IMG/VR virus record: IMGVR_UViG_2617270939_000001
Source of the DNA: a virus
Lineage: Duplodnaviria; Heunggongvirae; Uroviricota; Caudoviricetes
Strand: one strand, 5' to 3'
Length of the DNA stretch: 12,103 nt
In this document: positions 1,341 through 5,755 of the stretch, one piece after another
Layout: each line of letters starts with the position of its first letter
Position numbering within the stretch: the first letter of the stretch is position 1
Notes under the pieces: model-generated
Databases searched by the model: none
What the model saw: the letters and a program-made list of their open reading frames with translations, nothing else
What the model was told of the DNA's origin: nothing
Program-made: the position numbers and the translations under genes

Positions 1341-1916
1341 CTACGGCAGTGCTGGCCATTCAATATCCTGTGCAGTTGACGTATCAACACGGTTCAGCAA
1401 TACCCGATACTTTTTCCATGCTTCCAGCAACGAGATTTCTTCCTCCGTTGCAATTTCCAGATCTGCAGCATCCTGAAGCGGCGCAATATGCTCACTGGCT
1501 ACCTGCATCAGGCTGTTTTTTGTTTCTTCCGCCTCCCGGATCCGGAACAGTTTTTCTGCTTCCGTATCCTTCACCCAGGCTGTGCCGTTCCACTTCTGAT
1601 ATTCCCCTCCCGGCGATAACCAGGTAACATTTTCCGGTAACGGACCGAGTTCAGAAATAAATAACGCGTCGCCGGAAGCCACGTCATAAACCGTTTTACC
1701 CCGATGATCTTCAACGAGATGCCACGATGCCTCATCACTGTTGAAAACAGCCACGAAGCCTGCCGGAATATCTGGCGGTGCAATATCGGTACTGTTTGCT
1801 GGCAGACCTGTATGAGGCGGAATATATGCGTCACCTTCACCAATAAATTCATTAGTTCCGGCCAGCAGATTATAAATTTTTATGGTCCGTGGTTGTTCAC
1901 TCATTCTGAATGCCAT
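1341..1916 (-). CDS. tfa: Tail fibre assembly protein (Tfa), 191 aa
   Basis: Its start codon (1914-1916) shares one base with the stf stop (1916-1918), TAATG on the coding strand. Protein is TfaQ/TfaR-like. Convergent with pin, as in Rac and Qin. Confidence 0.85.
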
Positions 1917-3904
1917 TATGCAAGCCTCACAATATAGTTAAATGCGATGTTTTTGACGGTGTTTTCCGCGTTACCAGCAGCGTTAACGGTGATGGTATGT
2001 CCATGTGAACCAATCGCAACGGAGTGCGTATGAGCACCAATACCGACAGTATGTGCGTGTGCACCTGCGCTTGCAGCAGTACCCGATACAGAGTGCGTAT
2101 GAGCGCCTGCAGAAGAAGTGTTAACACTGTATTTAGAATAATCAGGTGATCCACTTCCCGGAGCACCACTGGAACCACCTGAAACAAATGTCATCGAATG
2201 GGTATGTGCACCGGCTGAAGCAGCCGTACCGCTAACACTATGGGTATGCGCACCAGTGTTATTCGTGGATTTAGTGCCGTAATCAAACGACGATGTGGTT
2301 TTCGTCCCCAAATCCGTACTGGATACGCTGGCGCTGTGGGTGTGTGATTTAATGCCGTCCTGTTCCTGAGACAATACGGCTCGATCACTGGCGGGCTTGC
2401 CCTTAATCGTCCAGCCACGCATATCAGGGATCACGCCTGACGGATAAGCGGCTGCAAGTTTCGGGTAAGCAGATTTGTCAAAAGTCTGCCCCTGCATCAG
2501 GGCATAACCAGACGGAACGGTATCTGATGGCCACGGGATTGGTGCGCCGACTGGATAAAACTCTGCAGGAGGATGAGCCGAGGTGTAAAGCTGCGCCCAC
2601 GGCGACCAGTTTGCGTCGGTCGTATCCCGTCGTGAACGAATAAATGCCGGAGCATGATCGCCGCTGGTTCCACTCCAGCCAATAAGTAACTCACCCTCTC
2701 CTACTGCGGTTACACCAGTGAGATGAAGCACATTACCATAGGTTGTTGGGTAGCCATTGTTGTATGCCTCATACATCTGAATGCCTGGTGTACCCTTTGC
2801 GCTCCCACTTAATGCCGTAACACGGTTTCTGGATACTAACGTATTAATATTTATATCGCTGGAACCATCAAATTTAACTCCATTTATATTTATCGCATTT
2901 TGTAACTTGGTTGCTGTCAATGCGTTACCGTTCAGACTTGCGGACAGTTTGGTTCCAATAACCAGTTCGCCGGTTGCGTTATCAATAGCAAACGGTCTTA
3001 ATGTATTCCAGCCACCATAAACATCACCTTGATTGGTAAGCAGCAGGTAAGTTTTAGCGCCATCATTACGCCATAATGCACCATACTCCCCACCTATCAT
3101 TCGAATCTGATTACCACCACGCGCTACAATTTCGTCTGTGGCAAAAAGTTTTTTGCACGACAAGTTATCGTTAACGATTAACGAATGAGACTCATAAAAA
3201 CCACGCCCACTCTTAAAATCAAGGATAACGTCCGCCGCGATACATTCAGTCGCCGGATTTGTTGCCCCAAACTTATAGGTCGTATCATTAACAACGAGAT
3301 CAGCACCAGGTGCGGATATTGACAGGCCATCTTCGATAAACGCAAAAACAGGGAAAGCAGCGCCATCAACATAGAACACAGAGCGCAAATCATCGCCCTT
3401 ATTACTCATCATTATTGAGTGGATGGCTCGTTCATTGTTTTGATATTGCCAGAACATTCCATAAGCATAACGCCCCCTGTCAGTCCAGCCACCAGGCATA
3501 ACAAATCCGTTAAACTCGCAGTTATTCATCGGATCGCCTGCGGTTCGCGTTGCCGTGGTGATAATGACCCTTGATGCCAGTTCGCTTACTGAGCCAGCAG
3601 AACGCATAACAGCAACAGGGTAATATTTTCCAGATGTTGCACCTGCAGGAGCGTTAACCCGCACATAACGCATACCACGCTTATCAGCAAAGTCTGTTTT
3701 ACTGACCGCGTTAATGTTGTTCAGGAAGCGTCCCTTATCGGGTATATCAGCGCCGTTCTGGTCTTTCTGCAGACGTTTCTCTGCATTGTCATAGGCTGCT
3801 TTTACTGCCTTTGGCGTTGCCGCCAGCGTTTCAGACGTGCTGTTGGTCGCACTGCTGAGCTGTACTATCCCCTTTTTCGTCGTGCTCGCATCCTCAAGCG
3901 CCAC
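1916..3904 (-). CDS. stf: Side tail fibre protein (Stf), C-terminal portion only; the frame is open up to about 4294 but has no ATG, and homology to lambda Stf begins about 4230
   Basis: Translation matches the lambda Stf middle and C-terminus ([35 protein letters not shown] … [14 protein letters not shown] … [31 protein letters not shown]). Upstream in the same frame (3905-4230) is the Ala/Ser/Thr-rich repeat typical of Stf. The 3904 start in the ORF track is a GTG (Val in SAVALED), not a true start. Confidence 0.8.
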
Positions 3905-4665
3905 GGCGGATGCAATATCCTCTGCCCGTTTTGCTGCTGTCTCGGCGCGCGTTGCCGCGGATTCCGCCGTACTTTTGCTCTGAGCTGCCGCCGTCGCACT
4001 GCCAGCTGCCTCTGTCGCCTTCGTGGATGCCGTCGTGGCGCTGCCCTTCGCTGCTGACGCCTGTCTGGTCGCCTCATCTTTTGAAGCAGACGCCGATGAT
4101 GCCGATGACGCCGCCGAACTGGCGGACGATGCCGCTGCCGTTTTTGAGGATTCTGCACGGGTTTCCGACGCTTTCGCGTTCGTTTCGGATGTCTTCGCTG
4201 CGGAAGCTGACCTCGCTGCTGCACTGGCCTGTTTTCCAGTTCCGGAAAACGCCGCTGCACCGACAGGGGGATCCCGTCGAGAATACTGGCAATTTCACCT
4301 GCGATCCGCGACAGCACGAAAGTACAGAATGCGGTTTCCACCACTTCAGCGGAGTCTCTGGCATTTTTCAGCTCCTGTGCGTCGGCCTGCGCACGCGTAA
4401 GTCGATGGCGTTCGTACTCAATAGTCCCTGGCTGGAGATCTGTCTCGCTGGCCCGCCGCAGTTCTTCAACTTCCCGGCGCAGCTTTTCGTTCTCAATTTC
4501 AGCATCCCTTTCGGCATACCATCTTATAACGGCGGCAGAGTCATAAAGCACCTCATTACCCTTGCCACCGCCTCGCAGAACGGGCATTCCCTGTTCCTGC
4601 CAGTTCTGAATGGTACGGATACTCGCACCGAAAATGTCAGCCAGCTGCTTTTTGTTGACTTCCAT
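3865..4665 (-). CDS. nohA: Terminase small subunit Nu1 homologue (NohA-like): 146 N-terminal codons are Nu1, then about 120 codons of out-of-frame stf DNA (deletion fusion, probably non-functional)
   Basis: First 146 aa ([29 protein letters not shown]…[12 protein letters not shown]) are nearly identical to lambda Nu1, including the wHTH. After codon 146 (about 4230) the protein becomes an Arg/Pro/Gln-rich tail, which is the Ala-rich stf repeat DNA read in the wrong frame. Confidence 0.8.
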
Positions 4666-4900
4666 TGTTCATTCCACGGCCAAAAACAGAGAAAGGAAAC
4701 GACAGAGGCCCAAAAGTTCGTTTTCAGCACCTGTCGTTTCCTTTCTTTTCAGGGGGTATTTTAAATAAAAACATTAAGTTACGACGAAGAAGAACGGAAA
4801 CGCCTTAAACCGGAAAATTTTCATAAATAGCGAAAACCCGCGAGGTCGCCGCCCCGTAACCTGTCGGATCGCCGGAAAGGACCCGCAAAATGATAATAAT
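4666..4900 (-). other. Intact lambda-type cohesive-end site: cosB (between Nu1 start and cosN), cosN (4843-4854), cosQ side (about 4855-4895)
   Basis: The minus strand reads …CCGACAGGTTACG|GGGCGGCGACCTCGCGGGTTTTCGCTATTTATGAAAATTTTCCGGTTTAAGGCG…, which is the lambda right end joined to the lambda left end with the 12-nt cohesive sequence GGGCGGCGACCT, directly upstream of the Nu1 start (ATG 4665-4663). Confidence 0.85.
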
Positions 4901-5053
4901 TATCATCTACATGTCACAACGTGCATCTACGCCATCAAACCACGTCAAATAATCAATTATGACGCAGGTATCGTATTAATTGATCTGCATCAACTTAACG
5001 TAAAAACAACTTCAGACAATACAAATCAGCGACACTGAATACGGGACAACCTC

Positions 5054-5287
5054 ATGTCAACGAAGAACAGAACCCGCAGAACAACAACCCGCAACATCCG
5101 CTTTCCTAACCAAATGATTGAACAAATTAACATCGCTCTTGAGCAAAAAGGGTCCGGGAATTTCTCAGCCTGGGTCATTGAAGCCTGCCGCCGGAGACTG
5201 TGCTCAGAAAAAAGAGTTTCTTCTGAAGCAAACAAAGAAAAGAGTGACATTACTGAATTGCTCAGAAAACAGGTCAGACCAGATTGA
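5054..5287 (+). CDS. Small basic protein, 77 aa, predicted ribbon-helix-helix DNA-binding fold (YnfO-like by position)
   Basis: Basic N-terminus (KNRTRRTTTRN), then a beta-strand-like IRFPNQ and two helices (MIEQINIALEQ / FSAWVIEACRRRL), resembling Arc/MetJ/CopG-type RHH proteins. Lies between cos and ydfO, where ynfO sits in K-12 Qin. Confidence 0.6.
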   Translation: MSTKNRTRRTTTRNIRFPNQMIEQINIALEQKGSGNFSAWVIEACRRRLCSEKRVSSEANKEKSDITELLRKQVRPD

Positions 5288-5344
5288 AGCAATTTAGATA
5301 ATCGTGCAGACTACGCCCCCTCATATCACATGGAAGGTTTATCT

Positions 5345-5755
5345 ATGGATCAGGTAGTCATTTTTAAACAAATATTTGATAAAGTTCGAAACGATTTAAA
5401 CTATCAATGGTTTTATTCTGAGCTAAAACGTCACAATGTCTCACATTACATTTACTATTTAGCCACAGAGAATGTTCATATTGTATTAAAAAATGATAAT
5501 ACAGTGTTATTAAAGGGCCTAAAAAACATTGTGTCTGTCAAATTTTCAAAGGATAGGCATCTTATAGAAACGACCTCTAATAAGCTGAAATCCAGAGAGA
5601 TCACATTTCAGGAATACAGAAGAAACCTTGCTAAAGCAGGAGTTTTTCGGTGGGTTACAAATATCCACGAACAAAAAAGATATTACTATACCTTTGATAA
5701 TTCATTACTATTTACTGAAAGCATCCAGAAAACTACACAGATCTTACCACGCTAA
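5345..5755 (+). CDS. ydfO: DUF1398-family prophage protein YdfO-like, 136 aa (the ORF track begins at an upstream ATG, 5330)
   Basis: A GGAAGG Shine-Dalgarno lies 7 nt before ATG 5345. Sequence and length agree with K-12 YdfO as I recall it. Confidence 0.7.

Follow-up and report, generated by a model that had tools for sequence, protein, structure and literature searches.

The palindrome beside cosQ in the prophage DNA analysed here (the window: the whole 12,103-nucleotide stretch of IMG/VR record IMGVR_UViG_2617270939_000001) is, with high confidence, an operator bound by the host regulator Fur, a statement that draws on published experiments with identical or near-identical DNA. Our best explanation, to which we give somewhat better than an even chance, is that this is a high-affinity Fur operator, the same as those of nohB/nohD and nohA in E. 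coli K-12, and that it occludes a leftward promoter reading into a homologue of the small terminase gene Nu1; we infer the promoter, its direction and the repression mechanism. As a Fur site the locus is already known, both in the literature and in compilations of the E. coli regulon. One point alone was absent from the accessible literature, namely the conservation of the box beside cosQ in live lambda-type phages.

The palindrome and its counterparts in E. coli K-12

The prophage of the window is defective, lambdoid and of the Qin/DLP12 type, and its features around the palindrome are collected in Table 1. Several E. coli chromosomes match the 281 bp around the site at 100% identity, and 4,610 of 5,426 complete E. 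coli genomes contain homologues of this 281-bp region. To the left of the site, the end of the Nu1-like open reading frame overlaps the start of a 662-residue tail-fibre gene, with an invertase among the genes beyond, and therefore the head and tail-shaft genes have all been deleted, as in Qin (nohA-stfQ-tfaQ-pinQ). The Nu1 fragment and the tail-fibre gene form the Qin-like nohA-stfQ-tfaQ arrangement, possibly read as a co-transcript. When mapped onto NC_001416, the palindrome corresponds to lambda 48452-48466 and cosQ to lambda 48473-48479.

Table 1. Features of the window around the palindrome
Feature	Position	Strand	Details
Core Fur operator, perfect 8-1-8 palindrome ATGATAAT-A-ATTATCAT	4890..4906	.	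Contains the 7-1-7 unit at 4891-4905; the same as the K-12 DLP12 nohD/ylcI site
Best match to the classical 19-bp Fur box GATAATGATAATCATTATC	4886..4904	+	16/19
Leftward sigma-70-like promoter (predicted)	4890..4917	-	-35 GTGACA (4917-4912), 16-bp spacer, -10 TATCAT (4895-4890); 10/12 consensus
cosQ, packaging-termination subsite	4878..4884	-	GGGTCCT on the minus strand (plus: AGGACCC); heptamer annotated as cosQ in the 434 and 21 records
cosN cohesive-end sequence	4843..4854	-	GGGCGGCGACCT on the minus strand, AGGTCGCCGCCC on the plus; cos site in the DE3 record, sticky end in the phi80 record
Nu1 (small terminase) homologue, noh-like, truncated or fused	3865..4665	-	Pfam Phage_Nu1, E = 2e-90, aa 1-148 of 266
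Tail-fibre gene, 662 aa, directly downstream of the Nu1 fragment	1916..3904	-	Pfam tail-fibre domains
DUF3950 gene (YlcI/YnfO family, 'RHH-like')	5054..5287	+	Pfam PF13132, E = 2.7e-21; RefSeq annotation
DUF1398 gene (YdfO/YbcV family)	5330..5755	+	Pfam PF07166, E = 1.7e-46

The sequence TGATAATAATTATCA at 4891-4905 reads TGATAAT-A-ATTATCA, a perfect 7-1-7 unit exactly as the first-pass annotation gave it, and its symmetry extends by one further pair to 8-1-8. The placement in that annotation, beside cosQ and about 150 bp upstream of the RHH-like gene, also holds: the palindrome is 6 bp away from cosQ and 36 bp away from the cohesive-end sequence, and 149 bp separate its end from the ATG at 5054. 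Its statement that a 15-bp inverted repeat of this kind is unlikely by chance has to be given up, as first-order Markov simulations lead one to expect about 0.9 perfect 7-1-7 palindromes of any sequence per window and three are present. The argument from palindromy alone is therefore weak, and what is rare is the match to Fur. All 14 of the 14 specified positions of the 7-1-7 Fur unit TGATAATnATTATCA are matched at 4891-4905, which is the single match with at most two mismatches in the whole window (0.07 expected), and a match of at least 16/19 to the classical 19-bp box was seen in 0.3% of simulated windows. Overlapping 7-1-7 units at offsets of -6 and +6 (4885-4899 and 4897-4911) match at 9/14 positions each. 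Taken with the 16/19 match, these units make the site an extended Fur box, not the lone dimer site without a 19-bp box that the first-pass annotation had described. This array agrees with the model of Chen et al. 2007, in which the homologous K-12 loci have three to four overlapping Fur sites (PMC2189734).

Alignment with K-12 MG1655 shows that the palindrome in the DLP12 intergenic region between nohD (formerly nohB) and ylcI is identical to that of the window, and that Qin (nohA/ynfO) and lambda/DE3 carry TGATAATGATTATCA, in which the sole difference within the palindrome is the unconstrained central base (G, against A in the window). Both K-12 loci have a published record as Fur sites. Chen et al. 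2007 list nohB as a four-site, 28-bp Fur cluster of 25.3 bits, the third strongest in K-12, and their Table 4 gives as its evidence the Fur titration assay of Stojiljkovic et al. 1994; in the same study nohA is a 22.3-bit cluster at 1634624, position -233, which was picked as a predicted Fur-controlled sigma-70 promoter, was positive by gel shift at 150 nM Fur and had earlier been selected in vivo from Sau3A fragments by Vassinova and Kozyrev 2000 (PMC2189734). After correction for genome version, the Chen coordinates of nohA and nohB land exactly on the palindrome centre (aligned segments L003:2101 and L002:1602), with U00096.2-to-.3 offsets of 1976 bp for nohA, from gene coordinates, and 777 bp for nohB, which was inferred. 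In the window, the distance from the palindrome centre (4898) to the Nu1-homologue ATG (4665) is 233 bp, equal to the '-233' given for nohA. A ChIP-seq summit reported by Myers et al. 2013 at 1634625 falls 1 bp from the palindrome centre, and its locus was classed with Fur-bound operons (PMC3688515). Reviews that name 'phage DNA packaging' among the processes controlled by Fur rest on these noh sites; noh, ynfO and ylcI go unmentioned in the main texts of the Fur ChIP studies Beauchene 2015, Gao 2020 and Banerjee 2020. The proposal that the palindrome is a Fur-binding unit was thus both correct and already known, with an identical site in DLP12 and a one-base variant in Qin and lambda published by titration, gel shift and ChIP.

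The window resembles each of the two K-12 loci in a different way. With the DLP12 nohD operator it shares the 15-bp palindrome, cosN, cosQ, their spacing, the GTGACA/TATCAT hexamers and a following ylcI-type gene, whereas its left side, in which the Nu1 fragment leads to tail-fibre genes, is Qin-like and differs from nohD-aaaD-tfaD; the DLP12 nohB site bears no gel-shift 'G' in the Chen table (PMC2189734). With the Qin nohA operator it shares the 233 bp to the Nu1-homologue ATG and the gene order nohA-stf-tfa / ynfO-ydfO; published work on this operator comprises a gel shift with purified Fur, the selection of a fragment in vivo and a ChIP summit at the centre of the palindrome. The Qin operator differs from the window in its central G (window A) and at two further positions, 4890 (window A, Qin G) and 4913 (window G, Qin A).

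That the site belongs to some other regulator, either FNR or the DUF3950 RHH-like protein acting on an operator of its own, seems to us barely credible. RHH proteins commonly autoregulate via nearby repeats, which speaks for the second candidate; against it, the box occurs with no adjacent DUF3950 gene in phi80, N15 and 21. The FNR consensus is TTGAT-N4-ATCAA, with a gap of 4 bp, whereas the TGAT and ATCA half-sites of the palindrome are 7 bp apart. FNR enters because the Myers peak came from an FNR ChIP-seq experiment and carries that label, yet Myers et al. themselves group the locus with operons known to be bound by Fur (PMC3688515), and purified Fur shifts a nohA oligonucleotide (PMC2189734).

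Direction of control

A consensus scan of 4660-5100 returned a single promoter-like site, which is leftward, and no rightward promoter-like site. The spacer and -10 hexamer of the leftward site lie within the palindrome, and the first gene downstream of it is the Nu1 homologue. In the lambda/Qin allele the corresponding hexamers are weaker (GTGATA and TATCAC), the differences from the window being at 4913 and 4890. These two substitutions, G for A at 4913 and A for G at 4890, are among the few near the box and separate the window, DLP12 and 434 from the lambda/Qin allele; both improve the leftward hexamers, from GTGATA to GTGACA and from TATCAC to TATCAT.

On our preferred explanation, the perfect TGATAAT-N-ATTATCA core would be occupied by iron-loaded Fur dimers, which probably also occupy the weaker units that overlap it on both sides. 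In the window allele, bound Fur would then cover the spacer and -10 of the leftward sigma-70 promoter (GTGACA / TATCAT) and block leftward transcription across cosQ, cosN and cosB into the Nu1 homologue, which in this deleted prophage would extend into the tail-fibre genes; loss of Fur would release this transcription. The layout would be that of classical Fur-repressed promoters such as fhuF, fepA-fes and cirA, in which the box overlaps a sigma-70-like promoter, here as a 19-bp box-like array with a perfect 7-1-7 core. It differs from them in that the downstream genes are remnants of phage packaging and tail-fibre genes with no link to iron, and in that 233 bp, including a complete cos site in the leader, separate the operator from the first ATG that follows it.

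Expression data from a fur deletion are partly useful here. Hou et al. 2023 report nohA and nohD2 as lower in Fur+ than in Fur- cells, with log2 values of -3.56 and -3.21, respectively, which supports leftward control. Their delta-fur table does not include Qin stfQ or tfaQ, their table of wild-type cells with and without iron does not include the noh genes, and no Fur ChIP peak was assigned to the noh loci, possibly because the region is multi-copy (PMC10219339). The strain used, NCM3722, has three near-identical noh copies (PMC10219339). In Table S2 of the same study, AA953_RS10095-RS10240, next to bioA, is about 11-fold up in the fur knockout (PMC10219339); these genes make up the full late operon of a third prophage, which is lambda-like and lies at the lambda attachment region, and their rise could reflect either prophage induction in delta-fur cells or an effect of Fur on late transcription. 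With three near-identical copies and a derepressed late operon in the third prophage, noh reads may cross-map, and the nohA/nohD2 signal is therefore confounded as support for leftward control. Because this RNA-seq support is confounded, we hold the promoter-occlusion mechanism with moderate confidence.

The first-pass annotation had looked in the opposite direction, suggesting that the box could make the rightward DUF3950/DUF1398 pair (5054-5755) iron-responsive, a proposal that did not survive and that we regard as decidedly unlikely. The box does sit 149 bp upstream of the ATG at 5054, and in the third NCM3722 prophage Fur+ cells have less ybcV2 and ybcW expression than Fur- cells, though there the whole late region changes. 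Against this stand the lack of a rightward promoter-like site in 4660-5100 and the fact that ynfO, ydfO and ylcI are missing from both the delta-fur and the iron differential-expression tables of Hou 2023 (PMC10219339). The box is also kept where no such gene follows it. In phi80 and N15 it is met by the end of a late-direction gene (gp59 in N15 and its homologue in phi80), it is present in 21, and in PhiR12/Stx1a-type phages no annotated gene lies between the box and Rz; across 65 box-bearing loci, no particular right-hand gene goes with it, the first open reading frame being a leftward late-direction gene in 26 and a rightward one in 39. Since the box does not go with any particular right-hand gene, the DUF3950/DUF1398 pair is unlikely to be its general target and the DUF3950 protein is unlikely to be its ligand. 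Finally, the stretch from 4930 to 5050, closer to the gene, has an inverted repeat of its own. The DUF3950 and DUF1398 genes are thus probably neighbours of the box and not its target, and leftward transcription into the Nu1 homologue is the better-supported target of the two.

The second inverted repeat lies at 4952-4984 and consists of ATCAATTATGACG and CGTATTAATTGAT, 13-nt arms that are 85% complementary and 7 nt apart. The stretch that holds it, just upstream of the DUF3950 gene, is 100% identical among the window, Qin, DLP12 and lambda/DE3, and from its sequence the repeat is a candidate operator for the DUF3950 protein.

Conservation of the box beside cosQ in lambda-type phages

The first-pass annotation had proposed looking for the palindrome at the right ends of lambda and related phages, and the outcome was strongly positive. 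We examined the sequence after cosQ in 120 IMG/VR loci with an exact cosN-23N-cosQ arrangement and scored the box by counting, within 30 nt of cosQ, how many of the 14 specified Fur-core positions were mismatched. Mismatch counts were bimodal, with 0-3 in 88 of 117 loci and 6-9 in the remainder, against a background frequency of about 0.8% for three or fewer, which indicates the presence or absence of a maintained element. Clustering of the loci on the 360 nt that follow gave 20 flank groups with no relation to one another, of which 13 have the box and seven, at 6-9 mismatches, lack it. It is present in lambda, 434, phi80 (TGATAATAATTATCA), 21 (CGAGAATAATTATCA) and N15 (CGATAATAGTTATCG), none of whose curated records annotates it, and the phi80 record labels an entire 55-bp stretch that contains it 'cosQ; aka R4 region'. 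No description of a phage phenotype for the box was found in the accessible literature.

Among 16 lineage representatives with unrelated tails, the box carries about 1.38 bits per position (1.33-1.38), with individual positions at 1.0-1.9 bits, while the next 10 bp carry 0.5 bits and positions beyond +25 carry 0.04 bits. The interval between cosN and cosQ served as an internal control, in that its positions 7-10 and 15 have drifted to 0.2-0.5 bits in the same sequences. Because these unconstrained positions have drifted in the same lineages, youth alone does not explain the box, which is under constraint. Between cosQ and the box the spacer differs in both length and sequence, placing the box 3-8 nt after cosQ in box-bearing loci (3-7 in the 16 representatives), and perfect 14/14 Fur cores turn up again in flanks that are unrelated. 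The right arm of the palindrome is more conserved than the left in the lineage representatives. Palindrome-preserving double changes, considered as evidence of a dimeric ligand, proved uninformative, with 2 symmetric double changes and 41 one-sided ones.

Two short elements accompany the box in the otherwise unrelated flanks of these 16 representatives. A semi-conserved tTTaCAT (variants TTGCAT, TTACAT and CTACAT; 0.3-1.3 bits) stands directly 3' of it at +15 to +21, where the window has TCTACAT (4906-4912), and an A-run precedes it. Both may represent the weaker Fur hexamers at the outside of an F-F-x-R-R array, or have another identity.

These patterns bear on the view that Fur binding is incidental, that is, that an AT-rich palindrome happens to fit Fur and was inherited with the cos block, with no selected regulatory role in a defective prophage. 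We consider this unlikely. Several observations are in keeping with it: perfect 7-1-7 palindromes are not rare in the window, the prophage is defective, the noh genes do not respond to the omission of iron in the wild type (PMC10219339), the main texts of several genome-wide Fur studies are silent on the locus, and seven lineages do without the box. Incidental inheritance is, however, hard to square with a box whose positions hold 1.0-1.9 bits where neighbouring unconstrained positions have drifted to 0.2-0.5 bits beside a spacer that varies, with mismatch counts that fall either at 0-3 or at 6-9, or with perfect Fur cores in unrelated flanks.

The leftward promoter does not follow the box through these lineages. 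The promoter-like signal is good in the window, DLP12 and 434 and weaker in lambda/Qin and phi80, and no promoter-like site over the box was detected in 21 or in PhiR12-type phages, both of which keep the box. Conservation of the promoter in all lineages was accordingly rejected, the signal being confined to the lambda/DLP12/434 family and, weakly, phi80. Since the signal is lineage-specific and the box is conserved throughout, promoter occlusion is not the whole reason for the conservation of the box.

The box co-occurs with a Nu1-type small terminase in 61 of 74 loci. A proposal that the box-less lineages are all terminase-less islands was rejected, as several of them encode full Nu1-type proteins; the box-less groups include phages with a lambda-identical Nu1, and a second Nu1-like type has a terminator hairpin where the box would be. 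Four loci (L012, at 4162-4203 and 4716-4757, L040, L042 and L076) each have two exact cosN-23N-cosQ cores, inverted and head-to-head about 510-770 bp apart with cosQ facing outward, both without a Fur box; in these, one copy is then followed by the terminator-like hairpin GCCGGATTTCTCCGGC. A search of genome contigs with the relaxed cos pattern CCGCCCCG-21N-AGGACCC gave chance matches only, in high-GC genomes such as Streptomyces, and comparison of the divergent lineages with the phage collection returned Escherichia phages and one Enterobacter phage and no others.

Relation to cos function and meaning for lambdoid phages

The position of the box invites comparison with the subsites of lambda cos (cosQ, cosN, I2, cosB with R3-R1, and I1; in phi80 also the 'R4 region'). 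Like these, it is contiguous with cosQ and conserved with the cos block in lambda, 434, 21, phi80 and N15. It differs from them in lying outside the 7-bp cosQ, in having no fixed spacing to cosQ or cosN and in being absent from seven of the 20 lineages. The first-pass annotation had allowed that the palindrome might turn out to be part of a characterised cos-flanking element; its start at 4890/4891 lies outside cosQ (4878-4884), and the 434 and 21 records annotate the heptamer alone. Because the spacing to cosQ varies and seven lineages lack the box, it is better seen as accessory or regulatory than as a core cos subsite, and its behaviour is that of an accessory to the cos/terminase module, dispensable yet maintained.

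Whether such an accessory acts through cos itself is a separate matter, and a role in packaging and not in transcription, with Fur acting from 3-8 bp upstream of cosQ, appears quite unlikely to us. On this view Fur would, for example, form a roadblock or bend that aids recognition of cosQ by the terminase motor, or protect the right chromosome end. The box is always on the cosQ side at 3-8 bp, is the right-hand limit of the conserved cos block in lambda, 434, 21, phi80, N15 and 13 of the 20 flank groups and is conserved even where no promoter is detectable, all of which would suit a role at cos. The standard cos fragments of the Feiss laboratory (lambda 48442/48446 to 182) also contain it, and for this reason those constructs do not separate the box from cosQ. 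On the other side, its spacing drifts by about half a helical turn, against the strict cosQ-cosN spacing of our search pattern, and among the seven flank groups without a box, some have a lambda-identical Nu1 and others a terminator hairpin at the corresponding position. The cos literature describes cosQ as a 7-bp site, and where accessible it mentions neither a requirement nor a packaging function for the box sequence. The study that defined cosQ is said, in its abstract, to have arrived at 7 bp by saturation mutagenesis and to have found substitutions between cosQ and cosN tolerated.

Beyond occlusion of the leftward promoter in the window, we tentatively put forward a wider proposal, to which we give appreciably less than an even chance: the Fur box would be a modular accessory to lambda-type cos and terminase, kept by selection in live phages and cryptic prophages alike, through which host iron, acting via Fur, would gate either prophage-state transcription of terminase across cos or cosQ-dependent termination of packaging.

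For the window itself, the site is of little consequence and already catalogued in the E. coli Fur regulon. For lambdoid phages more generally, the packaging-termination signal of phage lambda has one of the strongest Fur operators of E. coli within a few base pairs of it, and this operator has been maintained across many lambda-type phages. A role for Fur in lambdoid phage biology, via either prophage terminase expression or cos usage, is a modest possibility. If Fur does influence terminase expression or cos usage, host iron physiology would be linked to lambdoid phage maturation, and this link would include the Stx-converting phages that carry the box.
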